Assembly: GCA_000091205.1 (NCBI GenBank)
Contig: AP006502.2
DNA from: Cyanidioschyzon merolae
Taxonomy: Eukaryota
Direction: 5' to 3' (one strand)
DNA: 64,000 nt
Shown: one piece after another, positions 1-64,000 of the stretch
How positions within the stretch are numbered: position 1 is the first letter of the stretch
Layout of the letters: the number at the start of each line of letters is the position of its first letter
Position numbers and translations under genes: made by a program
The notes under the pieces: generated by a model
Seen by the model: only the letters and a program-made list of their open reading frames with translations
Databases searched by the model: none
What the model was told of the DNA's origin: nothing

Positions 1-137
1 CCACGTATGCGGAAGATGGGACTGATGGTAACTTCCGTCAGAAAGATATGCGTCTTTTGAGGTTCTCGAGAGCAAGATACTATCGAGAATCGGGAATCAT
101 GAATGCGAGGTAGAAAATTTGTACGTGGAATTCAGGA

Positions 138-749
138 ATGAAAGATCCCCTGGAAGCTTCGAGCGAGGTGACGAGCCGAGGAGCGGACTTTGAAGCTTTT
201 CGGAAATTCATGGAAGTTCGCATGGCGCATTGGGAGGCGCTGTGGGAGGAGTATACAAAACCCCGGTGGGCTCGTTTGCATATGAATTTGTATTGTGGTA
301 AGCAGCGGGCGTTCGCGAATTTTTTCAATCAGTTAAGTGACCTGAAGGAGGATGGAAATCAGAGGCTCGTCGTAGCATACGGAGCAGGGCACTGGAAGAC
401 CCGAAAAGGGTGTACACCAGCTCCAACGACAAGAACGTACAAAGAGTGTGCACGGCGTTTCGTTACGATACCTGTAGATGAGTTCCGAACCTCGTATACA
501 CACCATGAACTGGGGTGTACACTTCAGAGAGTGGAGATGGAAAAGTGTCAGCGGAGCCCTGAAGATATAAAAAAGTACGGACCGCTGACGGAGGAGCAAA
601 TGGAAAGGAGGGCACAAGTTCCAGGACTTCTTGCATTAGTGAGTACAACGAGTGACGGCAAGAAACGGATGGAGTTTGTGAATTGAGACTTTAACGCCGC
701 AATCAATATCCGGAGATGTGCGGTGCTGGAGAGAAGACCTCCAGAATAG
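138..749 (+). pseudogene. Decayed TnpB/Fanzor-like (IS605 OrfB-type, RuvC-like) nuclease remnant, C-terminal part only. It has in-frame stops and upstream frames are closed; the element probably extends beyond the window start.
   Basis: Translation shows LVVAYGAGHW..KG (G-D-W-like stretch), then VDEFRTSYT (RuvC-II E..TS motif), then a degenerate Zn-finger region. A TGA stop at 684-686 sits immediately before DFNAAINIRRC, which is the RuvC-III D.NAA.NI signature. All three frames upstream of 138 are closed. Confidence 0.6.
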
Positions 750-974
750 ACAAGAGTGAACTTTATTGGACAACCTCTCAAAGTCGAACTATATGAGAAA
801 AAGTTGGAAGCAGTAGTGGGTGGCCGCTCCAAAAAGACGGGAAGGCGTCTGCACCTCAGTTGAAGACTTCTTGTCGAGAGCGGGTTTCTCGCCACTACTG
901 TACACCGTTGGCGTCGTTCGACTTTCGAACGGCGTTGATGGTGCCACTATTCTGCCGTGTGTCATTCTGAGTGC

Positions 975-2636
975 TCAGCGAATCGCGTCGTTCTTATCAC
1001 TGGTCTCCGTTTTGAGGGTTTCGTCAATGCTGAGAATCGTGCATGCAGCCTCCGTTGCCGAAGCAAATGCATTGGCACGAATCAGGACCGGTTCCCAGAC
1101 ATAGTTCTGCCAGCAGTCTTGCGGTTCACCGGTTTCCAGGTTTGCTCCGAACCAGAGATTCTCGTCGCTGGTCGCGTGTTTTGCCCGTAGTTTGTTGAGG
1201 AGGTCAGTGGCGTCAAAACCAGCATTCTCACAGAGTGTGCGGGGTATGGTCTCGAGTGCTTTGCCGTAAGCCGCGAGCAAGAGCTGCGCTTTGCCCTGGA
1301 TATGCCTAGATCGCTCCCGCAGAAACTTGCTGAGCTCCATTTCGACAGCGCCGCCACCAGCCACCAGCTCGGGGTACTTGAGCGTACGTCTGACAATCAT
1401 GATGGCGTCGTGTAGGGAACGCTCGGTTTCATCGAGGAATTGCTCGGATCCGCCGCGGAGTAAAATGGTGGCCGACCGAGCCTCCTTGCATCCAGTGAAA
1501 AAGTTAAAGCGCTCCGCTCCGACCTGCCGCTCTTCGAACCACTCACAGGTACCCAGAGCCTCTTCCACTCGCATATCGTGAACAGTGGTCTGAACGCGGG
1601 CACCGACCGCTCGCGCCACCCGCTGCAGATCGGCATCGGGAACACGACCAGCACAGAAAACTCCGCGATCAGCGAAGTACTGCGTCGCGAGATCGCCAAT
1701 TGCCAGCCGGGAGAGCACAACACGAGCTCCAGTGGCCACTATTTTCTCAAGTTTCTCGTAGATGATATTCCACTCCGCGTCCACGATTTGCTGGTAAGCA
1801 GCAGCGGATTGCACCCGCACCTCCGCATTCTCCTTCTCGGACTTGAGTTCCAGTTCTAAGTTTAACAGCAGAATCTTGGGTTGATGTATCTTCTTCGGCT
1901 GCTGCTCAAAGCCGGCATAGCTGAACGTCTTCTTGAAGCCGACACCCGCGACGAGGCACGAGTCCGTCACACTGCCACCATTGACCTTTTTCACGCCGAT
2001 CATGTCCAGGTCCAGATCATCATCCAGGGCGAGGACTGCATCAACAGCTATACCTGCGAAAAATTCACGGTATTGCGCGATGAGCTTGCTGTTGAGCGCC
2101 GTCCCCGCACAGCGCTGTAGCAGGGCGCGAGCGGCCTCACGTTCTTCTGTGGAAACGCGTTCGGGATCGGCGCGCAGGACCTTCAGTTGACCGCTCACAT
2201 CGACCGCGATCTGCTTCAAGCGCTCCGAGATCATGCGGTGTGCCTCGCGATAAGCGTAGATGATAACGCGTGGGTGCACGCCGTCCTCGAGAAAGCCCTT
2301 CGCCTGACGCAGCAGCTCGCCTGCCAGCAGCACTACCGACGTGGTACCGTCACCGACTTCCTCGTCTTGAGACTTGGCGATGTCAGCTAGCAAACGAGCC
2401 GCAGGATGCACAACTTCGAGCACTCGAAGGATCGTCGCGCCGTCATTCGATATAGTGACCTTGCCGTCGCTCCCCTGGATGAGTTTATCCATGCCTCGCG
2501 GGCCCAGTGTGCTGTGCAACACCTCTACAACCTGCTCGCAGGCGTTGATGTTGGATATGATCTGCCCGATACCTTGTGAAGCGTCCACGTCATCTTTGAG
2601 GATAATGATCGGAGGATAACCAGAAACCTGCGCCAT
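975..2636 (-). CDS. CCT7: T-complex protein 1 subunit eta (CCT7, group II chaperonin). The ORF runs on to 2771, but the conserved start is [16 protein letters not shown] at 2636.
   Basis: 598-aa ORF with [13 protein letters not shown] and the equatorial/apical domain motifs. It aligns near full length to CCT eta (e.g. [16 protein letters not shown] and [11 protein letters not shown] equivalents). Confidence 0.9.
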
Positions 2637-3631
2637 GAACGCGAGCCTAACCACAAGCGCGTAACCCCCGTCGACGCCGAAAGCGCAGGCACGGCAGCCG
2701 CGGACGCACTGCGCACCGCCGAAGCGGATGGAACGCGGCACGCGGGCGCGCGTAACACAAGTTCGGTCCAAGGTACTTCGCAGAACTTTTTAACTCCAGG
2801 CGAGTCGCTCTCTTCTCTAGCCGCACCGGTGGGTCTCCTGGTGGCACCCGGACAGCGCTGGGTGTTCCACTGACGCTTGGAGGTGTCTCGTATACAACGA
2901 CAGCGTTACGTGCAGGATTGCTGACGCCGGCGCCTGGGAACTTTGACCACTGCGTCGCGCACGAGTTGTGCGCTATACGGGCGTCTGAGAAAAGTCACGC
3001 GCACCTGTCGCGGTGTAGCTACTGCTAGTTGGTGACGCTAGCCAATAGTGGGTGAAGCGCAAACCGAGTGCGCTACGGGAACGTTTTCGAGCGAGGAATC
3101 AGGGCGTGAACGATTCGGGACACGAGCGTCTTCGGCAGCACGTTGTCGGCCGTGGACAGTGGTCAAAGTACTGAGACTTGACGCAGTCACACGAACTTGC
3201 GTCTGGGGGGATTGCCTCGCGCCCTCCAGTGACACACGAGGGGTTACCACTGCTGTTCGGCAGTGGCCCGCAGTGGTGGACACGCAGCGTGTCCGTTTCC
3301 CGCCAGTGCACGCATCAGCAGAGCGCGCCTGCGTGCTTGTTGGACACGTGTCCAACGATCCGCTTTGCACTGCAGGGGAAGCGCTTGGGGGCTGTGTTCA
3401 GCAGCTGCGGCTGCAGCAACAACAACACCAGCAAGAACAGCGACAACTGCTCAGGCTTCTCTAGGAAGCAGCTGCGAACCAGAACATTTCTCTGTCGAGA
3501 ATCGAAAAGCCTCGTTCACAAGCGTGTGCTTCATTCTTCAGGAAACATCTAGTCCGACATAGGCGCATTTCTTGGCGACACGCGCTATCTTCTGATCGCT
3601 GTTGTCGCACGAGCTAGTATCGTAGAAACTG

Positions 3632-4678
3632 GTGTTTTCTGCAATGGTGCAGTCGGTAAACCTGGATACGGGGCAAGCGGAGGAATTCGAGTTGAAGCAG
3701 GGGCAGTGCGGTGCCGCACAGGAACCGCTCATACCAATCCGCATCGATGTGCAGTGGAACGATGCCCGTGTTGTCGATGCCTTTCTTTGGAACCAATATG
3801 AAGAACGCCTCACACCGGAGACGTTTGCCCCACACCTGCTCCGGGATCTGCAGCAACCTATGGAGCTTGCAAACGGTGTTGCGTCCGCCATTCGCGAGCA
3901 GATAGAGCAGTACTCTCCCTTTGAACACGAGCTATTCGCGGATCGTTCCGAGTTGCGCCTGCTCTTTACCTTGGATGTGCGAATAGGGAATATCCAGCTA
4001 CAGGATACCTTTGAGTGGGATGCGCTCTCATTCGAAAGCGATCCCGAGCAGTTTTCGCGGATGCTCTGTCGAGAACTGGGCCTTGGAACAGAGTTTAGCA
4101 CCGCCATCGCCCATGCGATTCGTGAACAGTTGCAGGACGTTTGGGCGGGTGTCGCTTACTCCCAAAAAAGCATTCTGGAATCCGTGCATCCGCGTATAAC
4201 GATTCGGGATGGCGAAGATTGGGAGCTTCCGGGTCCCGCGGTGCGCGTGCTCTCCAAGGAGGAACTCGAAGAGGTGGAGCGGCGTGAGGATCGCAGTGCT
4301 CGCGCCATGCGTCGCAGTCAGCGCAAATCCGGGCTGAGCTGGGGCCTGGCCCCAGCGCCAACGCTCCGGGAGCGCTCCGTGGACAGCACTGTGTTTTTCG
4401 GGCCGCGGCAAGCCGTGGCCGAAGAGCGCCCCAAACGGCGTCGCAACCAGAATCCTGTTGACTCTGAGGGTCGGCCCGTCGTAGCCTGCAGCCATTGTGG
4501 TCGACATCCGTCAAAAACGCCTTTAATGCGAGTTGGACCACGTGGTCTCAAGAACGAAATCTGCAATAGTTGTGGCCTGTACTATCGCAAATATGGAGAG
4601 CTTCCCACGCATTATAAGGGCTATCCCATTGGGCCTGGGTATCCGCCACCTCCTGGAAGTCAGGAACATGATGCATAA
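3632..4678 (+). CDS. SNF5/SMARCB1-family protein (SWI/SNF core subunit) with both SNF5 repeats and a C-terminal GATA-like C4 zinc finger.
   Basis: Rpt1 (LIPIRIDVQWNDARVVDAFLWN...ASAIREQIEQY) and Rpt2 (RIGNIQLQDTFEWD...LCRELGLGTEFSTAIAHAIREQL) align to SMARCB1/BSH. The C-terminus reads CSHCG...TPLMRVGPRG...CNSCGLYYRK. Confidence 0.8.
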   Translation: MFSAMVQSVNLDTGQAEEFELKQGQCGAAQEPLIPIRIDVQWNDARVVDAFLWNQYEERLTPETFAPHLLRDLQQPMELANGVASAIREQIEQYSPFEHELFADRSELRLLFTLDVRIGNIQLQDTFEWDALSFESDPEQFSRMLCRELGLGTEFSTAIAHAIREQLQDVWAGVAYSQKSILESVHPRITIRDGEDWELPGPAVRVLSKEELEEVERREDRSARAMRRSQRKSGLSWGLAPAPTLRERSVDSTVFFGPRQAVAEERPKRRRNQNPVDSEGRPVVACSHCGRHPSKTPLMRVGPRGLKNEICNSCGLYYRKYGELPTHYKGYPIGPGYPPPPGSQEHDA

Positions 4679-32728: not shown

Positions 32729-34332
32729 CTCGGACGCTGCTTCTGTCTATCCAGTACGCGCAGGTGCCTGGAGCCATGGATATGACTTGCTAGCGCTGAT
32801 CCTCTTCTAGTTGCAGGCTGCACGAGTTGGTATGATGTCACGCGTGACGCCGCGTCCCGCAAGGTGTCTGCTGGACGGCACTGTCTGCGGGTAACGGGTA
32901 TGGCGTGCTGCTACGGGTTGCTGTTACAGTGGACGCGCACCGCACAGGGGTTTTCAGTGCAGGTTTTGAGCGGGGCTCTGCGAATGCAAACACGAATGCT
33001 TGGGCGTCAGTGTGACTTGGCGTCACGTTCGTGCAGACCGAGCTTATCGGGAACGGGTGCACGATACACGCTGCCATTAGCTTCTGATCGCCCGGCGGAG
33101 GAGGTTGGTACGACGCAGTCTTGGTCGTTTCTCCTCAAGCCGTCGTTTCTTCTGAGGCACTTACTAAGACTCTTTACGGCTCGTCGGCATTCGTTTGGTG
33201 CAGCGGTAAAGCATCCAGGCGGCTTTTGGTGCACCAAGCGGTCCGTTTCGAGACTTGTTCACAGTGCGTTGCGCTTGTGACCGGGTTGCTTCGCATCCTT
33301 GGTCAATTGATATCGGAATATGTGTCACGCTTGTGTGGCCGCGCAACGACGTTGCCGGTTGATTGAAGACTCTCTTGACGGAGGCAAACATCGACGAGCG
33401 AGAAGTTTCCATTTGCTGCGATCGATTGCTTGAGTCTTTCGGAATCAAGCCTTGGTGTATATCTAGTTAATTCAGGCAATCGTGATCGCTATCTGCGAAA
33501 TTCCCGCTGTCTCGCCAACATCATCCGATTTGGGCTTCTGAGGCAGTGCGGGAACCATAGCAGTGGACGAACTTTGCGAATGGCCGTCCTCACGTCTGAG
33601 AACGACAAAGGAGTAACACCACACGCGTCAAGCATCCTAGCTGGAACTCTATGCAGTGTGGAACGATGTGGCATGCTCGCGAATACCGAATCATGGAAGA
33701 GCATTATCGTTTGTCCATTTTCTGAGCAAAGCGTTCCCGGTTTATGTATATTGGACTGCATCCTTGCTGGTTTGTTGATCATTCTGTACCAGAGGATTGC
33801 TCCGGGCGAGAAGAAGTTGTCCGGCGCTTGGCCACGTATCCCTTTTCATCAAAAGTCTTCAGCATTTTAGCAAAATGCACTTACTGATTGCTTAGAGATT
33901 TCCGCGAAAGTTCGCTCGACACAAAACCGCGGGACGTTTCGGATACATGTGAAATTTCCGAATGTTGTTTCCAAGGTGTTCGAGTCCTGGTGCGGAAAGT
34001 GCCTGCGCGCATAGTTGCTAGAGAAACCGCACCATCACAAGCCACTGAACTGCGTTTGCCTCATAATCTGTCATTCGGTGAGCTCACTGCACACCTTCCC
34101 GTGCACCTGTCTCTATTTCGTGCTCTGTCTCTGTGACGGTGTCAATGTACACCTGGAATCGTGGTGCATGTATGGCGCCCAGAATTTTTCGATAGGTAAC
34201 CTGCGGAATCGGGTACTGGAGTCGCCGTCATCGTCGTCCGCTCTCGTCCGAGCAGGAGTGCAGCCTGTGCGCGCTGGAGCACGTCCAGCCCAATACGATA
34301 CCAGGAAACGACGCGACGTATTGGTCATTTTC

Positions 34333-34944
34333 TTAGCCAGCACGTTGAACGCTTCGGCGAATACGCGTTTCGTGCTTCCGCGTTACCGAAGAAGTTCTCG
34401 ACCGCAGCGCGGTCTCATGGTTTTCTACCAAAGATCGTCCGCATGTGCGATTTCGACGCTCGTTTTCGCTTTGAATCAAGAATGCAATGCATCCGTCTTC
34501 GCTCAGTACGGTGCTCCGAGCGTCTAGATGGGCAATGAGTGCGCCTATCCGCTTGGTAATATGCCTGCTGGCGTCGTGCATGCGTGACTCCCGACAAAAT
34601 CCTGGCATGGAAAAGAAGAGCAGCATCATTTGCTTCCCGTTCAGATCTTCGGGTCCGTCCTCATGATTTAGAAGTACGACAACGGCCAAGACATCTTTCA
34701 ACTCAGGAGTTTTACGCTCTATCAAATCTTTCTCTTCATCTACCTGGATCAGTTGAACATGAGTTTCGTTGGTTTTCTTATAACTAGGTTTCATAAAGTG
34801 CATGCAGATAGATATTCCATCGTTCTCCATGGGCCATGTACATTGCTGTCGAGTTCCTCCCTGTAGATGAAGATCCTTGATAGAGCTCGTCGAATACGCT
34901 TTGGAAAGCGGTTTGAGTGCTTCGTATTTGGCCGCAGAGGCCAT
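34333..34944 (-). CDS. Hypothetical ORF (203 aa) inside the lower-GC island. It may be spurious or a decayed element.
   Basis: ORF only, with no recognisable motif. Lies in the compositionally atypical 33.4-37.1 kb region. Confidence 0.15.
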   Translation of the reverse strand: MASAAKYEALKPLSKAYSTSSIKDLHLQGGTRQQCTWPMENDGISICMHFMKPSYKKTNETHVQLIQVDEEKDLIERKTPELKDVLAVVVLLNHEDGPEDLNGKQMMLLFFSMPGFCRESRMHDASRHITKRIGALIAHLDARSTVLSEDGCIAFLIQSENERRNRTCGRSLVENHETALRSRTSSVTRKHETRIRRSVQRAG

Positions 34945-37038
34945 CCATCGTTCACTGGCAAGTCCATATAGTCAAGTACACAAATCTCGCTGGCGGTATC
35001 ATGGGCACTGTTCTCACACATACCGACAACATCGAATGGAGAACCTTGGGGAGGCTAGGGCGCCCGCATACTGCACTTAGATAGTCTGCTTTGCTCTGGG
35101 CAGCTATCATCAGAAACACGCAGCATCGCAAGGTGCAAGCAAGGTAGGCAAACATCATGTTTGATCCATCGTTTGGATGCCACGTCCGCCGATCCGAGGC
35201 CGCGAACAGTGCCATAAGCTCGGATGATCCGAAGCGACTTTCGCTCTTGTCACAACATGCCGTCCAAAGTCGCCACATTCTAGTTCCACCGCCGCCACTA
35301 GCCCATCATTTGCATGAATAGACATCCCGAAGATGCATTCCACCAATCCCCATTTTTCTGGACACGCGGCGTGATGCTACAACGTCTTCAGAGTATCCCA
35401 TGTGAGGCGTTCGATATTCACCGGCATGTAGTGTCTGAGGTTGATTTGATACTTTTTGGAACCTGTGCTCCAGATGCTCCGATCGCCCACGTCGCCCAGC
35501 TACGATTCAGGGGTGCTCCGGAAACCACCAGGGCTTTTCTTTGGTCATCGAATCTGGCAGTATGGCATCTTATTTCTAGGGCATCTTTTGCGTCCTCGCA
35601 AGGAATTGATTGAAAAATTTGCGAATAATCTGGATAGCGGGCAACTCTGGGCCCGGAACTCCCACCTGCAGTTGCTTGAACAGAGGCTTCAAGGCGAGGA
35701 AGTCTAGTAGAGCGTTCCGCGGATAAGCAGCTTCGCGATCTGGAATCGTATCCTGCGATCTTCGGCGTCATGATGTCGAACGACCCGTCTACGAGCTCCT
35801 GAGCCTCATACGGCATTCGATATCGGAGAAGACGCCTGTGGCTGAATTGTGCTATGGAGAATAGACTGGAGCGGAGAGCAGCTCAACGTCGATCCGAGCA
35901 ACGTGTTCCTTGACTACGCTCGAGTGACGAAATGCGACCTTGTCTGAAAGCATCATTGAGGAATTTGGATAGAGGAAGCCCCGAAAACTGCTTCAATGAA
36001 CGATGCAGTTTTGACGAATCCAATATCTTTTGCGATTCTGGAGGAGGACTATATGATTGCATATTAGCTAAGGCTGATGTTTGTCGTACGGCTCGCTTGT
36101 CGCTTCTTAACGAACACCGATCTGTATCGGTTTGGGAATCCATTTCCAGGACAAGCATCTCCCTTGGATGAGGTCTCATCGAGTGAGACGAAGACTCGTT
36201 CCTCCTGTGCTCATTTTCGCGTTCCAATTCGAAATCGATAGCGTGTTGATCAAAGCGCGATCATCAGTTATAGAAGCGTGCTTCTTTCTTTGTTCATCCG
36301 TGTCTTGCTATTACCGATCGTATCAAAGGCCCGGAAACTTTACATTCTATGGGTTATTTCATGGCCTTTCTTCGAGAATAAATGGAATGGAATGAACTGA
36401 TCAGGAGATCGTAGTGTCAACAGAGATTCATACCTTCCGTTTTTAACTTACGACAGGCAGAACAGGGACCAGGAAAAGTACGGTTTAGCTACCTGCTGAA
36501 GGTAGAACAAATTAATTGTAAGTGTCCGGGCATCTCCCACAAGCTAGCAGTGACAGCATAACGTCTCGTCGCGACATGTCCCCAACTGCAATGTACATTT
36601 CTTCTGTTGAATACATTCCATCATAAACAAACCAAAAGAAAAGTGCCTGCTAGTACAGGCATTCCAGAATGCTGTTCCCCAAGTACAATCGTGTTTGACG
36701 GTACGGCTGATAGCCACCACGCTCGCTGGGCATTCCACGACGCCGCAACAGGCATGCTGGTTTCGCAACGACACCTGTTAGCATGTCGATAACCAAACTG
36801 ACATGGTGAGGATATTTCAATAAAACATCAAAGCGTCTTACTTTGAAGGGAATACTGCCGGTTGTCCGGGGCGCTTTTCGTCCGAAAGGCTGCAAACTGT
36901 CCAGGTGCCAACCATCAAGGACGCAACGATGATTTCTTCCTACCCAATGCGTATACGACCGCGAAAGACGTGCTTCGATCCTCGCTAACCACGCACTGGA
37001 CCATGCCGTTCTGCATGAATCGGAGAAACACCGATGAT

Positions 37039-45257: not shown

Positions 45258-46656
45258 AGATTGGGCGAGCAGGTCTCTGGAAGCGGCCAGAGTCTGAAAG
45301 AATGGCGCATATTCGATCTTTATGGATCATGGATCTGTCCCGCTGGTCCACGCCAGTGGGAAGCACGCTGGTCAAAGTCCCGCCCGCGCTACGCCCAAGT
45401 CGAACTGGCATAGAACAGGTCCTTTCGCACTGACGTACAAGTCCATGTTTGGGTCTCCTCTGACCGTCATCAGCGCCGGCTGCTGCGGGGCTATTTCTGG
45501 GACTGCCTCGTTTGCTTTTCTTATATCTGCGGCTTTCAATTCGCCGGTTTCCCCGGTTCTTCCATATCCGTTCATAGCAGTCGATTTCGAGATTTGATGG
45601 CAGCATTCAAATCCCAAATTCGCAGCTTCCAGTTGTTCCCGACACACTGCACGCAAAGACGCTAGTCGTGCACTACGCTTCGCTTACCCGTTTTGACTTA
45701 TTCGTGTATAGCCTTCAGTGTGCACGTCGCAGTGGCGATATCTGGCTGTGATCAGGTATTCCCATGCAGCCGCCGGACATTTTCCGCCCCTGAAGGCTGC
45801 CCTGCTGCCCGTGAACGCTTGCTTCATCGATTGGCGCATGCGTTTGACGGGTAAACAAGATGCTCCTGGATGTCGTTCTCCATAGTCGCGCCCAGTACCG
45901 CGTCCTACGATGACGGGCGCTTCTTCTAGCCGATCGTCTCGAAATGTACGCCGTCCGCTGCTAGTGCAAACGCACGCTGTCTCATGCGGTAGAGGATTTG
46001 TGGAACGCGATGTCGTCCACAATGAAACAAGTACCGAGAAGAAAACCCAGGCTGGCGACTGCGTAGAGAAAACTCGATCCGTTGGCGTTCCCGTCGAGCA
46101 TAAGCGCTGATGCATTCTCCACTGGGAGTGAGCGATGCGACGAAGCAAGTCCGAGTCCAAGACCCTATTCGATGTAAACAAAAGAGAGGGCGGCGCCTGA
46201 GCGCATATCGCGTAAGAGGTATCGAGCTGCTGTGAAATGCGGTTTCGTAGATGGCTACCAATACAAGAGGGGAATTTCGGCATTCGAACGTCATCGATCA
46301 CTTGACATGACAAGTCTGGCAACTTTGTGGCATGTGTTTGTGAAGATGTCGTCGAGCGACGGAATCGACATTGTTTGATAGTCAATTCAGCGACGCAAAA
46401 TGCTCCACTCATGTGTTGCCTTGAAACGGTACGACCGACCAACCTGAAGACCATATGATTTGACCATACTGCACATTGGGAACGAAAAACGTCTGCAGGC
46501 TTCCACCTATGCATAGGATCCATACATCAGTTCTCTTATGAACCAGTTTTTTCGAGGTTGACGCGAATCATCTTGATTCCGATAGCGTTACCAAATCCAG
46601 CGAAGAAGCCTGGACGGAGCCTCTCCGAAAAGACACCCGAGCATTCCCCAAAACTA

Positions 46657-48408: not shown

Positions 48409-50378
48409 TGTTCGCTCAAGAGCTTCCTCTAGAAGTAAAAGTTTTGGTCTTAGAGGGGAAGCATGTCAAGAAATGGCGGTCGAGGCGCGTTACAGCCTCC
48501 CGGTGCCACACATTGTTTTCCTCTGACTCGTCTCGGAACTCGATGTTGGCACTGCAAAGCCATTTTATGAATGTGGGCCAAGTCGGAATTTATCGCTCTC
48601 GCCCTAGCCGCTTCGAAAATTGACTGGTCTCTGTATTCTAGCGCTTTCCATGGTAAGTTGCGGGTGCTCGTCCAGAAGTGCGCTGCTAGATGCAACAGGA
48701 GACCACCGACAACGATCAGGGCTTGATTCGAAGCGGAACAGGGCGCTCACTGAGTATCCAGAGCACCTGTTTTTTTTTGAGGAAAATTGAGACGTATCAG
48801 CGCCAAGATCCACAAATACGATCGTGCGCGATTCTATTCAGAGCCTCGCATACCCGTTACAGACTTGAATGAAACACTGAACTGCTCGCCCGGTTCCCGC
48901 CATGAGCGTATTTTTCCAGACATTCTTTCGGTGTCGAGACCCCGCATTCCGAGTGCTGCCATGAACGCTTGCAGATCCATGCGTCGTTTTGAGATTCTCG
49001 GTCATTTTTTTCGGATTGGCTCTTTCGACGCTTTAGAACTGGAATTCGTCAAGTCATCGGAATCGCGATGATTCTCGACGTCCTCGTAAAAGGTTCGTAA
49101 AGTGACCAATATCCTTATCCAATACATTCCTAGAAGCCTCCGTTATTCTGCTCTGATTGCAAGCAGCATGCTCGAATCACGCATTCTTCGGGTTTTCGAA
49201 CTTTCTGTTTCGAGGCACGTCGTCGGCGCAGGAATTCATTCCGCTGGATTGACAAGGAAAAGTACACAGCGTCTTCTATTGACGCATGGTTCACAGGCTC
49301 ATGCAGAACATTCACTGAACGTCCCATGTCCAATCATCGATTCCGTTCGAAAGACAAATCGTCCACTCTTTGTGACCATCGATGAAACGGCCTTGGAAAA
49401 CAGCCTGATGCGTCTGACGGCTTATGCTCCATGAGGCTCACTTCTCTTCTGTGTGCATGGAAACGTGTCGTGGACGTGGTCATGCGTCATCGCAACGATC
49501 GCTTCCTGTCGAGCGTGCGCCACAGCTTTGCACGAAGCGGGCGTAGACGGATCGAAATATCTTGACGACTTGGCCAGTTTGTATTTTTCTTCTGGTACGT
49601 GTCTCATCAAGGACGTTCCCGTGTCTCATAGCTCCTCAGTCGAATGGAACAGCATACGACTGCTCATGCAGCCGACAGCAAAGTCGTCAATGGAATCCCG
49701 CAGAAGAAGCCCATGATCGTAGTGTCCGGCATGGAGCACAGTTACGGAGTAGCGCAACCATGGGAGCATTCCGTAGCTAACACGCGCACGTACCGAGCAA
49801 TGAAGCGAGCGTCAATGCGGTACAGGTCAGCGCTCGCAGAAGCAGGTATGGTGTACATCTGGGAACGCTTGACCAGAGCCAAATGTTACCGTTGCGAAGC
49901 ACGCGACGGAGCTACACGCAAAGAACATGAAAACGGCAAGTGAAACGCAGATCGCAACAACTGCCGGTGCTTGGAATGCGTCGAAAACAGCCGGAAGCTA
50001 CGCACTAGGCACTTGCAAGCTGCCATCAATATCCTTTGACCGCTGAAAATGCATCTGTAGGGATCCGAGCGACCAGCGTATTGAGAGCCGGAGCTCGACC
50101 AGAGGAATACCAATCCGTCGCGCAAAAAACCCACAAATGCTGGTTTTCCTGACAGCGGAAAGTGTCCCAAACGTTCGCATGTACGCTCCGCTAGTAGACC
50201 AGTTCCATTTCCCTTCGATCTTGGATCAACGGCTACTGGTACTACAAGAATCTGCACGGCAGACAAACGATTACGATTCCGAAATGCTTTGCATACCTTT
50301 CATGCGTACAGACCAAGATCCTGCTTCATTGCTAGCTCGATCCTTGCCGGCCATTTTCACCGAAACGCTCAGGGAACC

Positions 50379-58812: not shown

Positions 58813-58991
58813 ATGTGCATGGATAGAGCGTGGGAAGAGACTCCAGCTCATTTATCGGTGCTTGAAGCTTGTCATCGCTGCTCGGCTCCGTAGTCGCCCG
58901 TGTAAGAAAAGCGTGATCGATCTGGGAGCATCTTCGGTGCTGGATGCGTTCCCGCCACCTTTCCCGTACGCAGACAAGAGAGCAACACTGT

Positions 58992-59034
58992 GTCTCTGTT
59001 TCTGTCTCTGTCTCTCTCTGTGTGTGTATGTGTG
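58992..59034. repeat. (CT)n/(GT)n compound dinucleotide microsatellite.
   Basis: ctctgtttctgtctctgtctctctctgtgtgtgtatgtgtgtg seen directly. Confidence 0.8.
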
Positions 59035-59141
59035 TGAACGCTGACTCGAGGACGTTGGCTCCGGAGAGCTGTGTGCTCACTCGGCGCGTCGTCCTGCAAA
59101 ATAAGGGCAGGCGCCAGCACCCGCATGCCGCCTTTGCCCAG

Positions 59142-59780
59142 ATGAACACCGTTGGCGGCTCGAGATATCGGGGCGAGCGTCTTGTTCCTCAGTGCCAACG
59201 CATGGCGAGGTCTACTGGGACCTCTTTTAAGGAGAAACGTAGGCGTTTGGCCTCGGGAAGCGTTCTGTTTTCCAAGTGCTTACGCAAGTCATGTTGCGTT
59301 TGCCTGGACGCGACGCTGTCTGACTTTGAGAAAGCGGTTTATCACGTGGCCGCGAGTATCGAGCCGGGACGTGTCGCGACATACGGCACCATAGCGCAGG
59401 TGATTAAGCCAACGGAAGGCGCGCGAGCTGCTCGAGCCGTTGGCACTGCGTTGCGGAAGAATCCTTACTGGAAAGAGGGCTGCGTTCCTAAAGTTCCTTG
59501 CCACCGTGTCGTAGCGGCAGATCGGACGCTCGGTGGTTACATGGGCGTTAAAGACCCCAAAAGCACGCAGCTGGAGCGGAAACGCTGCATCATGCTTGAA
59601 GAGGGCGTGCCGCTGACGCGAAACAAGCGTGGTCAATGGGTCGTTGTGGAAAACGTCGCTGGAGGCGGCGGCACGAGCGCTGGGCAGCCGCTTCTGAGCC
59701 CCGCAGAGCTGCGCGCAATAGCTGCTACCTTCGCCAGCGCTTCTAGTCTTTCACCTGAAGGGTGTTCGACCCCCAGATGA
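59142..59780 (+). CDS. MGMT: O6-methylguanine-DNA methyltransferase (MGMT/Ogt), short form. Only the C-terminal DNA-binding/active-site domain is recognisable. The start is either ATG 59142 or ATG 59202.
   Basis: DFEKAVYHVAASIEPGRVATYGTIA...AVGTALRKNP...VPCHRVVAADRTLGGY contains the HTH, the Asn hinge and the PCHRV active-site cysteine motif. Confidence 0.75.
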   Translation: MNTVGGSRYRGERLVPQCQRMARSTGTSFKEKRRRLASGSVLFSKCLRKSCCVCLDATLSDFEKAVYHVAASIEPGRVATYGTIAQVIKPTEGARAARAVGTALRKNPYWKEGCVPKVPCHRVVAADRTLGGYMGVKDPKSTQLERKRCIMLEEGVPLTRNKRGQWVVVENVAGGGGTSAGQPLLSPAELRAIAATFASASSLSPEGCSTPR

Positions 59781-59799
59781 GTGTCATCAAAAGCGTTTT

Positions 59800-60200
59800 C
59801 GCGGTTTACATTAGATGCGTTCGAAGTGCGTTCCTTTGAAGAAATAAAAATCCAAGGGAGATGTATGAGCGTACAAGTCGGGGATCCTAGCGGGCCGTCC
59901 TAACCAGATTCTACGAAGACATGAAAAAATGCTCATCGCACCGACCCTCGATCGAAGAGGAACATATTCCGAAAAAGATGAAGAAGAGGGGAGACAGGCG
60001 AGAAATGGTGTTTGCTGCACGTCTCGATAACGAGACTGTAGTGGCACAGGGGCCGCGCGTTCGATGAACCCTTGCACTGGTGCGTTCAACCAGCGTCAAT
60101 GCACGCGAGGAGTTCGTGAACCGAGTCTTCAATGCCACCATCAATATCAGACGATGTGTGGTACTAAAGACGAGACCCGCGAAGCTGGCGCCGTTTATGT
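59800..60200 (+). pseudogene. Second, more degraded copy of the TnpB/Fanzor-like nuclease 3' region (about 75% nucleotide identity to 540-749). It has frameshifts and a stop.
   Basis: Translation R*TLALVRSTSVNAREEFVNRVFNATINIRRCVVLKTRP aligns with copy 1 GLLALVSTTSDGKKRMEFVN*DFNAAINIRRCAVLERRP. The catalytic D is replaced by V. Upstream, LDAFEVRSF corresponds to VDEFRTSYT in another frame. Confidence 0.55.
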
Positions 60201-62247
60201 TTCTGGGGCATGCTCTCAAACTCGTATCGTGCCTGGATAAACTGGAACCGACACCAGCCGGCCGATCAAAAAAGCGAGAGGCGTCTGCGCATCGATGCAT
60301 ATATACCCGTCATGGGCTGGAAACGTTTTTCGTTTTACGAACTATAACATATAGTATTGCTTGGGCATCGTATTCCAGGGGAATTCGCACTTGTTGCTGT
60401 CAGGGAGCATTGAGCTGTAATGGTGCATCCTGCGCTTCGAGTGATGCGTCGATGCAGCAACCATGCCACCGGAGCATGCGTCTCTACGAGAGGCGGTCAA
60501 TGCTGGGGCCGCACCGCATTGCGACGCGCCCCACGAGCAGACGTGCCTGCTGAGACGCCGCAAACCGGTTCTGAGTCCGTCCAACGACGCATTCAGCATC
60601 GTGTCGAGCGTTCACGGCACGCTGACCACACGAAAGCTCACTGGATGCATCAAGCCGGTAACCCGAACGGAAGTCTGGTCTGGGGTCAGTGAAACGGAGC
60701 GGTGACAGGAGCGGCGTGGCGAGCGCTTCGCACCTTGCGCTCATCAAGCACTCGTGGGTGGAGCTGCTCGTTCGAATCATCGAACGTTTGCCATTACAAA
60801 CTGTGCATCTCTGAACTTATTTCAGTGAAGAATGGCATAGGCCCACTTGGCTGGACCGGGTGTACGCGCTCAGGTTTGGTTCTCATGCTCTGATTGTCAG
60901 TACCAGTTATGGCAGGCGCTTCCTGCGACTGCCTCGGTTTCCTCTCTCACATCTTCGGCTTCCAGTACGTCGAGTTCTCCTTTCCCTATAGATTTGTTAT
61001 CAGCAATCGAAAGATATTGACGGCAGCGTTAAAGCCCCAATGTCGCAGCTTCCTCCCGTTATTCTCCTGAGGTACACTCAGCGAGAAGTTGCGATCTACG
61101 TTTCGCATGTCATTTCTATGCTCTTCGTATGCAGCCGCGGTGCACCTGTTGCAGCGGTACCATCGGGCCGAGTGCAAGCGTTCCCATGTGTATACCATAT
61201 CTTGGCGTTCGGTCGCCGCCCTGTGGCACGTAAAGGACTGCTTCAGCGGTCAGCACACGCCCATGACGGGTTCAGAAGGCTCACTTCGATATCCTCTTCT
61301 GTTTCCGCGCCCGGTGCCGTATCCGACGCTCGCGAGCTTGGTCTGGGCGATCCCCGCAGCGAGAACTCCATCTGCCGCACACGCAAGTGCACGCTGCCCC
61401 GCTCAGGAGAGGATTCGTGGTGCGCGATACTGTCCATAATGAACCCAAGTTTCTGAGGGACAAATGCAGGCCCAGGCAGAAATCGAGGAATTTCGATTTG
61501 TCGAAGCGCGCTTCCCGCAAAGCACTGATACGGTCCATTGGGATCAGTTGTTGCGGGGATCGTCGGTCGAGTCCCAGAAACTCTTGTGCGCAAACGGAAG
61601 ACACGTTAGCCTCTGAGAGAGTATCACGTAACAGGTGTCATGCTGGCGTGGAATTCCTTTTTTCGTCGATGAACAGAAGGAGAGGAGGATTCGTCTGTTG
61701 AACGAAATCCATGATCTAAGGTGACAAGTTCACCAGTTTTTGGGCAGGTGCTTGAGAACAAGTCGACAAGGCCCGACGTCGAGATGCTCTGGTCGTTAGT
61801 GCAGCGGCGGAGAACGCTGCACGCACGAGTTGCGTTGAAACAGAAACATTCAAAATCTCGAAGAATGCATGAGTTGAACATGCTATTCATGAGGAAAGGA
61901 CACGGTCGGAGGCTTCTACGCACGAACCAGATGATGATATCGCTCACTTGACGAATCTCTGTTTGGGGGCTTCACGAAGTATACTGGTGGCGGTGACGAC
62001 ACGAACCCGATGGTGAGCGCCTCGAGGCCACAAGTATCCGCAGCCGCTACTTCATACTGCTGGTGCTGCTGGTGCCGCCCTCGAGTCGCACCAGGGACAC
62101 ACTCGTATGTCTGAGAGGCACCGGGCCTCACGAGCGCATGGACACCCAAGCCTCTGCATATACTCGGGTCGAGTGACTCTGGCTTGTGCTCGCTGCGTGC
62201 ACGCGGTGCAATAACCATGGAGCAGGTCGAATCAAGACGCTTCGTCT

Positions 62248-64000
62248 TTACAGTTCGTCGTGTTCCTCGCTATCCCGATCATCATCTGCCGACGAGTCTG
62301 CTGACGAGTCCTTGCCGGTTCCCTTTGCGGACTCGTAGGTCTTCAGAATAATCGGCTGAACAACGTCTTGGAAGGCCTTCATCCGTTCCTCGATGGCGGC
62401 CGCATCCGAGGCTTCACCGTGCTCGTCCAGCCAGTCCTGAGCGCTCTCAACACTGTCTTTGAGCTTGTCTATATCGTCTGTGCTGAGTTTGGTCTTTTTG
62501 TCCTTGTCCTCGTACATCTGACGCACCTGGTAGATGTAGTTTTCAAAGTTATTTTTGGCGTCCACCTTGCGTTTGAGCTTGGCATCGACCTCGGCGTACT
62601 CCTCTGCCTCACGAACCATTCGCTGGATTTCTTCGTCCTTGAGGCGTCCTTTGTCGTTTCGAATGGTGATCTTCTCGCGTTTGCCTGCCGTCTTCTCCTC
62701 TGCACTGACCTGGAGAATGCCGTTTGCGTCGATCTCAAACGTGACTTCTATTTGTGGAACACCGCGCGGAGCAGGCGGAATGCCCGTCAGTTCAAACTTA
62801 CCCAGCAGATGGTTGTCCTTGGTTGCAACGCGCTCGCCCTCGTACACTTGAATGAGCACGGAACTCTGCCGGTCCACATGGGTCGTAAATATCTGACTCT
62901 TCTTCGTTGGGATGGTGGTTCCGCGGTTAATGATTTTGGTCATGACACCACCAACGGTCTCAATGCCAAGCGACAAGGGCGTCACGTCTAGAAGCAGGAT
63001 GTCTTTGGTGGTTTCCCCACCCTCGCCAGATAAGATCGCGCCTTGCACCGCCGCGCCGTACGCGACAGCCTCGTCAGGATTGATGCCTTTCGAGGGCTGC
63101 TTCCCGTCGAAGAACTCCGTAATGAGTTCCTGTATCTTGGGAATGCGCGTGGAGCCACCAACCAAAACGATCTCGTCGATATCCTTCTTCTCCTTCTTGG
63201 CATCTTTGAGGACGATCTCCACTGGCTTGAGCGTCTTGCGAAACAGATCCATGTTCAGGTTTTCGAAGCGAGCTCGTGTCAGCTCCTCGATGAGATCCTT
63301 CCCATCCATGATGGATTCAATCTCGATCCGCACCTGCGTCTGGTAACTGAGCGCTCGCTTCGCCTTTTCCACTTCGCGCCGAAGCTTAGCCATCGCACGT
63401 TTATCGGTCCGCAAGTCCAAGCCATCGTTCTTCTTCTTGAATTGTTTCACCAAATAATCCATCACCCGCTGGTCAAAATCTTCGCCTCCTAAGTGGGTAT
63501 CGCCGTTCGTCGCGAGCACTTCAAAGACACCGTCATCGAGGGTAAGTAGCGTCACGTCAAAGGTACCACCACCTAGGTCGAAAACAAGAATGTTCTTCTC
63601 AGAGCCGCCCTTGTCGAGCCCGTATGCAATGGCGGCAGCGGTCGGCTCATTGATGATGCGCTGAACCGTCAGGCCGGCGATGGTGCCTGCATCCTTCGTA
63701 GCCTGCCGCTGTGCGTCATTGAAATATGCCGGCACGGTGACGACCGCGTTCTTCACAGGCTTACCTAAATAGTCTTCAGCAATTTTCTTCATTTTGCCTA
63801 GGATCATTGCACTTATCTCTTCGGGCGAGAACGTCTTCACTTCCCCATCGCGCACTTCTACCCGAATGTAAGGTTTGCCGTCCTTGTTCACGACTTTGTA
63901 CGGCAATAACTTTATATCTTTCTGGACAGTCTCTTCATCGAAACGCCTTCCGATGAGTCGTTTCACGTCGAAAATCGTCCGCTCCGGGTTCAGTGCCAGC
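62248..64000 (-). CDS. BIP: ER luminal Hsp70 BiP/GRP78, partial. The N-terminal roughly 100+ aa lie beyond the window end.
   Basis: Typical Hsp70 sequence ([28 protein letters not shown], the substrate-binding domain) ending in the ER-retention signal HDEL immediately before the stop. The ORF is open to the window edge. Confidence 0.95.

Follow-up and report, generated by a model that had tools for sequence, protein, structure and literature searches.

A probable relic of a short, internally deleted Fanzor1 transposon between an MGMT-like gene and BiP in Cyanidioschyzon merolae

In a 64,000-nucleotide stretch of Cyanidioschyzon merolae DNA (hereafter the window), a sequence lying between an MGMT-like gene and the gene for BiP is in all probability (we would put it at roughly 0.84) what remains, now inert, of a short non-autonomous element derived from a Fanzor1 transposon, this transposon being CMe-1A or a close sister. 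The argument is built on direct observation of the homology of this sequence (referred to as copy 2), its anatomy, a deletion junction that it has in common with other copies, its decay, and the fact that two sister species lack it at the orthologous locus. A first-pass annotation had taken it for the second of two independently decayed 3' fragments of a TnpB/Fanzor-like gene, in the same orientation as the first (copy 1), which lies at the start of the window. Both copies are indeed on the plus strand, and the TnpB/Fanzor-like origin is upheld by profile and fold comparisons that point to solved Fanzor1 structures; the anatomy of copy 2 is different from that proposed. The features are collected in Table 1.

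Table 1. Features of the window and copies elsewhere with the same deletion junction (positions of the latter are given with the locus name)
Feature	Position	Strand	Basis
Copy 1: Fanzor1 element, 3' ~940 bp only, truncated by the window start	1..942	+	nhmmer
Copy 3: very diverged, heavily disrupted, near-full-length Fanzor1 pseudogene	33880..35487	-	tblastn, hmmsearch
MGMT-like gene, PCHRV active-site motif	58944..59780	+	ORF list; Pfam DNA_binding_1 on orthologues
Copy 2, 5' segment: 5' UTR, start-codon remnant, ~first 55 codons	59741..60043	+	nhmmer
Copy 2, deletion junction, peptide ETVV/AQGP	60044..60058	+	alignment with L020, L062, L014 and the deleted consensus
Copy 2, 3' segment: ~last 90 Fanzor1 codons	60059..60295	+	nhmmer, blastn, hmmsearch
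Copy 2, decayed 3' UTR and terminal-hairpin remnant; 3' end approximate	60296..60350	+	alignment with L020 and the consensus
BiP	62248-63966	-	convergent with the MGMT-like gene
Same-junction copy	L020 5563-6080	-	alignment, translation
Same-junction copy	L062 6253-6869		alignment, translation
Same-junction copy	L014 7084-7343		alignment, translation

Fanzor1 proteins are eukaryotic, TnpB-like, RNA-guided DNA endonucleases with a RuvC fold. Judging from profile homology and a predicted structure, the source gene of the window copies is a Fanzor1 gene. With copy 1 as query, a database search retrieved 274 proteins, many of them 80-87% identical and up to 500 residues long, whose motifs include GADPGNTN, VDEFRTSYT and FVNRDFNAAINIR; an exhaustive profile search yielded 1,476 clusters at 50% identity, with full-length members of 600-740 residues. 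A shallower profile (A1) found no Fanzor in the PDB, so a diverse one was needed (A2, built from 56 diverse relatives). Its only PDB matches were PpFz1 from Parasitella (9cf0, E = 1.4e-17) and SpuFz1 from Spizellomyces (8gkh, E = 5.2e-10), and in both the RuvC-I, RuvC-II and RuvC-III motifs align (DPGR, DEFRTS, NRDxNAA). Pfam gave no significant match for copy 1, copy 2 or nine close relatives (the best being Cas12f1-like_TNB on copy 1, E = 0.6), and for the diverse relatives the best match, also to Cas12f1-like_TNB (E = 0.0023), was below the curated threshold. The AlphaFold2 model of one relative, P0123 (pLDDT 86.8, pTM 0.85), had exclusively Fanzor1 structures as its top seven PDB matches (E = 7e-17 to 6e-16, target-normalised TM 0.55-0.73), led by SpuFz, GtFz and PpFz (E ~1e-16 to 1e-17), and matched Cas12 and Fanzor2 only at E values of 1e-4 or above.

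The family shares profile homology and predicted fold with the solved nucleases SpuFz1 (8gkh), PpFz1 (9cf0) and GtFz1 (9cer), and its motifs align with their RuvC-I DPG, RuvC-II DEF(R/K)TS and RuvC-III NRD; like them, its protein is within the ~600-800 residues typical of Fanzors and is carried by a multicopy transposon. It differs in that identity to these nucleases is only 11-15%, in that it is known here from sequence and a model, in an acidic tandem-repeat insert before RuvC-I, and in that their CxxC...CxxC zinc finger is not kept (HHELGC...EKC...RGLLALVS in the family). The Fanzor1 signature of Bao and Jurka, D..[TS][TS]xx[C4]..RD, places a C4 zinc finger after RuvC-II and before RuvC-III (PMC3627910). 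Its four cysteines are not conserved in the present lineage (close relatives read TSYTHHELGCTLQRVEMEKC...VRGLLALVS and the broad consensus only RGLLWCxST), and the assignment to Fanzor1 therefore rests on profile and fold. Intact relatives and the 785-residue consensus described below retain the RuvC catalytic residues (GADPGNTN, VDEFRTSYT, FVNRDFNAAINI); the window copies do not keep this set, copy 2 having only the RuvC-III segment, with its aspartate replaced by valine, and copy 1 a stop in place of the arginine next to that aspartate. As for the acidic repeat (KDEDEKEADPATQEVEDNDLVV), it is present in variable number just before RuvC-I in P0002, P0008, P0012 and P0026 and at consensus residues ~470-540, its copy number differing between elements.

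The suggestion that the two window copies belong to an old dispersed repeat family is supported by at least 491 stretches encoding relatives in metagenome contigs, and by the literature: CMe-1A, a Fanzor1 family of C. merolae, comprises ~150 copies that are ~80% identical to a ~3-kb consensus (Bao & Jurka 2013, PMC3627910). Across the 84 loci compared, the repeat unit spans 2.66-2.95 kb and breaks off sharply on its 3' side, ~65 nt beyond the stop codon. Most family copies are disrupted; a consensus drawn from 74 aligned DNA copies nevertheless contains an uninterrupted ORF of 785 residues, from which a thermoacidophile-derived Fanzor1 could be reconstructed for testing. The window BiP, which ends in HDEL, shares 93% identity with its counterpart in Cyanidiococcus yangmingshanensis, 82% with that in Cyanidium caldarium and 94% with that in a further JGI/NCBI genome, which places the host among the cyanidiophycean red algae. 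Comparing its host lineage, length, number of copies and architecture with the published description, we infer that the transposon is CMe-1A or a close sister. CMe-1A has no TIRs, and its TSDs could not be determined (Bao & Jurka 2013, Mobile DNA 4:12, PMC3627910); a cyanidiophycean red algal host, a length of ~3 kb, the absence of TIRs and a single Fanzor1 ORF are common to it and to the element studied here, as are the scarcity of intact ORFs and the existence of short non-autonomous relatives. Old copies are ~70-88% identical here, against ~80% in the published account. The short forms differ in structure: TE-N2_CMe is a 635-bp relative equal to the 5' end of CMe-1A (PMC3627910) and retains that end only, whereas the short form described here consists of the 5' ~290 bp and the 3' ~300 bp, joined in frame. 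Copy 2 is thus probably ordinary debris of a Fanzor1 family catalogued in 2013 and not a new system, and its import for biology at large is small, being one more dead copy of a known family.

By blastn, window 60042-60293 pairs with 601-857 over 257 columns, of which 63% are identical (E = 4e-21). The resemblance between the two stretches seen in the first-pass annotation is real, and the narrower block then compared (640-739 versus 60080-60177) is 70% identical, close to the 75% given for it. Similarity extends to both sides of the RRC motif, reaching FLGHALKL...GRSKKREASAH at window position 60292 on the 3' side, farther than the first-pass annotation had it. In a six-frame translation of the window, hmmsearch detected copy 2 with the family A1 profile (E = 5e-14) and with the broad A2 profile (E = 4e-9). 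With a DNA profile of the 74 copies, nhmmer resolved it into two adjoining pieces, namely 59741-60043, corresponding to profile positions 95-382 (E = 4.4e-19), and 60059-60295, corresponding to positions 2312-2553 (E = 5.2e-25). The start-codon remnant is an ATG at 59876, where copy 2 reads MSVQVGDPSGPS* (asterisks denote stops) and the consensus MKKQVDDPGGPGS; the ~55 codons that begin there form a basic, NLS-like region. Consensus position 382 is joined to 2297, with the in-frame loss of 1,914 bp or 638 codons, and translation across the join gives ETVV/AQGPRVR*, the slash marking the junction. As read from these alignments, copy 2 is an in-frame internal-deletion derivative with both ends kept, and not a bare 3' fragment.

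The motif-bearing peptide said to be preserved is present in copy 2 (EFVNRVFNATINIRRCVVLKTRP), and comparison with the family (NRDFNAAINIRRC) corroborates the reported change of the catalytic aspartate to valine, by which the RuvC-III motif NRD has become NRV (EFVNRVFNATINIRRC; translation over RuvC-III, EFVNRVFNATINIRRCVVLKTRPAK). The stops do fall at different positions in the two copies, with EFVN* in copy 1 and VR*TL, inside VRGLL, in copy 2. Because copy 2 lacks RuvC-I and RuvC-II and has lost the RuvC-III aspartate, and because it has stops in both its 5' and 3' segments, no terminal hairpin and only ~63-70% identity with its relatives, it reads as inert, probably acting neither as a nuclease nor as a guide gene. 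A 157-residue ORF at 60080-60553, or a fused mini-ORF, was considered as a functional product and rejected in view of the stops, the substituted aspartate and the lack of conservation; for annotation, this ORF should not be called a gene. The two window copies had also been proposed as substrates for ectopic recombination. Homologous recombination needs far more than 63% identity and an exact run of 10 nt, the longest that they share, and this proposal was discarded.

What has been lost from the 3' terminus of copy 2 can be appreciated from the rest of the family. In an alignment of 53 3' ends, two hairpins follow the stop codon. The sequences of the terminal one fall into at least two classes, CGTCGTTCGA-CTT-TCGAACGGCG and AACGTTTTTC-TTTT-GAAAGACGTT (CTA/TAG variants also occur), which differ by compensatory changes. 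RNAalifold on the raw MAFFT alignment of these ends found no consensus structure, because the hairpins of the two classes lie offset from each other in it, and per-sequence folding was used in its place: 26 of the 39 unique variants fold better than shuffled sequences at p <= 0.05, with a mean z of -2.6. In characterised Fanzors, the 3' end encodes the guide RNA, and the guide itself extends past the right end (PMC10530073); by analogy, the terminal hairpin could belong to a guide scaffold, but it could equally well act at the DNA level as a transposition signal, or as a terminator. The hairpin-bearing terminus of the family can thereby be named as a candidate guide-RNA scaffold or transposition signal of this Fanzor1 lineage. 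Two further observations concern this end of the element. In many flanks that have nothing else in common, a semi-conserved (T/G)(G/A)TGGTG-like motif comes just 3' of the terminal hairpin (alignment A3, columns ~277-287; e.g. window 937-946), and could reflect a target-site preference or a true element end ~10 nt further out. Solo two-hairpin 3' modules of ~100 bp (L037 1028-1121, L049 1029-1122, L046 370-476 and L067 1002-1111) are located ~750 bp upstream of some full-length elements, within other shared sequence (GGTGGTATGTTATTTT... / ...GGGCTCGATGTACGGGTTAGGCTCTTGAAAATA), which suggests a composite or a second non-autonomous family with the same terminal module.

It is improbable that the short element, or copy 2 itself, keeps a function, be it as a guide-RNA-only (omega/fRNA) or hairpin element served in trans by Fanzor1 or some transposase, or as a terminator or 3' UTR for the MGMT-like gene. 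Such a role would account for a deletion that kept exactly the two ends, for a family terminus whose two hairpins carry compensatory substitutions at the end where known Fanzors encode the guide RNA (PMC10530073), and for an MGMT-like ORF that ends within the element. However, the terminal hairpin of copy 2 is destroyed (the 5' arm AACGTTTTTC is kept, the 3' arm is gone, and the folding z is -0.8), its identity to the family is as low as stated above, and in two sister species the corresponding intergenic region lacks the element. We would give still less credence to the original proposal, according to which copy 2 is a truncated or frameshifted 3' fragment that decayed in place independently of copy 1, with a remnant of RuvC-II upstream. 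The 3' ~250 bp do match the 3' end of the ORF, and LDAFEV is superficially like VDEFRT, whence the claim that LDAFEVRSF continues the similarity to VDEFRTSYT in a shifted frame. The LDAFEVRSF codons (59809-59835) nevertheless lie within the 5' UTR of the element (GCGTTCAAAGAGCGTTC), the upstream 300 bp as a whole being its 5' UTR, ATG and first 55 codons; hmmsearch found no profile match to RuvC-I or RuvC-II upstream of the junction; and the same in-frame junction recurs in three unlinked copies.

This 382/2297 junction, together with a subfamily-specific insertion, is common to copy 2, L020, L062 and L014, all of which have the junction peptide ETVV/(A/E)Q, and the alignment of copy 2 with L020 is contiguous across it (blastn, 70% over 503 bp, E = 1.8e-54). 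Since the junction is common to three unlinked copies, the deletion presumably predates the transposition of the short subfamily. The four copies are on different contigs, in both orientations, with flanks that show no relationship even where they meet the element, which on sequence grounds argues that the deleted form itself transposed. Segmental duplication or gene conversion would be in keeping with the fact that ends and TSDs are undefined for the element, and is harder still to credit given these contigs, orientations and flanks. Chance or compositional similarity limited to the short RRC-containing stretch, for which the low identity of 63% is the sole argument, can be set aside in view of the blastn (E = 4e-21), whole-window nhmmer (5e-25 and 4e-19) and protein-profile (5e-14) matches and of the extension to both sides of the motif.

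The reading that we favour, a dead copy of a short non-autonomous Fanzor1 derivative, can be set out as a putative sequence of events, in which mobilisation in trans, the order of the steps and the lack of function are the parts that we infer. The full element spans ~2.66-2.95 kb; its consensus encodes the 785-residue Fanzor1, and it closes with two hairpins, ~65 nt beyond the stop codon. A deletion removing 1,914 bp in frame, which presumably arose once, would have joined codon 55 to the last ~90 codons, and the resulting ~0.6-kb element, with both termini kept, may then have been mobilised in trans, giving rise to unlinked copies with the same junction. The window copy would have entered the convergent intergenic region at the point where the MGMT-like gene ends, and subsequently drifted, gaining stops, losing the RuvC-III aspartate to valine and losing the terminal hairpin. 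At most, it may be a passive source of final codons, stop codon and 3' UTR for the MGMT-like gene.

A comparable organization is known from derivatives of bacterial IS200/IS605 elements (PATEs) and from MITE-like derivatives, in which the coding interior is deleted, both ends are kept and amplification takes place in trans. The present case differs from these in that the deletion is in frame, ~145 nuclease codons are kept, and no TIRs or TSDs were found, the ends of copy 2 being too decayed to show them. A short derivative with both ends kept in frame and presumably moving in trans is a small addition to what is known of this family, and so is the terminal hairpin with its covarying positions. 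It is conceivable, if doubtful, that these ~0.6-kb mini-Fanzors were, when young, a non-autonomous family keeping the 5' promoter/UTR and a 3' guide-RNA/hairpin module and served in trans. They would in that case correspond, in a eukaryote, to the omega-RNA-bearing PATEs of bacteria, with full-length Fanzor1 and a transposase acting on them, and the covarying terminal hairpin would be a functional guide scaffold or transposition signal; this would apply to the young subfamily and not to the window copy.

At the locus itself, the convergent intergenic position described for copy 2 holds, with the MGMT-like gene on the plus strand and BiP on the minus strand. The MGMT-like ORF runs ~12 codons into the 5' end of copy 2 and has its stop there (59741-59780). 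In a C-terminal alignment, its orthologues from two sister genomes stop earlier (...AEAFVDT* and ...VEASTR*); a transposon-derived C-terminal tail of this gene is a point for annotation. The gap between the MGMT-like gene and BiP is 2.5 kb in the window, compared with 1.0 kb in L085 and 0.5 kb in L087 (C. yangmingshanensis), and no profile match to Fanzor was found between the two genes in either. No clean empty site or TSD was found in L085 and L087, where the intergenic DNA is too diverged to align. The rest of the spacer (window 60341-62250) contains fragments of other dispersed repeats: 60983-61202 resembles 49844-50063 (minus strand), 60920-61053 resembles 45494-45630, 61817-61958 resembles 49091-49231 (minus strand), and there are further matches to L084, L019 and L008. 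A fourth Fanzor1 copy at 61013-61060 (minus strand), indicated by the peptide GFNAAVNI and a blastn E of 3e-4 in a small search, was rejected, as there was no protein-profile or nhmmer match; this region is part of another repeat, matching 49844-50063.

The window has two other copies. Copy 3 was detected at about 33900-34950 on the minus strand by tblastn of the copy 1 conceptual protein against the whole window (E = 1e-16), and in several pieces over profile positions 135-606 by hmmsearch with A2 (E ~3e-8). Its amino acid identity is ~30%, and numerous stops and frameshifts interrupt it; either its age is much greater or it comes from another Fanzor1 lineage. Copy 1 corresponds to positions 1697-2636 of the 74-copy DNA profile (nhmmer, E = 0), and its translation matches A2 with an E of 3e-74 in the six-frame search and P0001-P0012 at 80-87% amino acid identity. 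It contains RuvC-II, RuvC-III, the C-terminus, the 3' UTR and an intact terminal hairpin (905-940), which is perfect and has a z of -5.4. Three in-frame stops interrupt copy 1; one of them, a CGA to TGA change, replaces the arginine adjoining the RuvC-III aspartate and gives EFVN*DFNAAINIRRC (in full, EFVN*DFNAAINIRRCAVLERRPPE*). About 33 bp separate the end of copy 1 from the 3' end of a CCT gene. A JGI metagenome contig (L001) matches window 13-3688 at 98.6% identity; there, copy 1 carries on beyond the window start to meet an inverted copy that lies directly before window position 1. This second Fanzor1 copy (L001 1574-2668, minus strand) is arranged head-to-head with copy 1 and truncates its 5' side.
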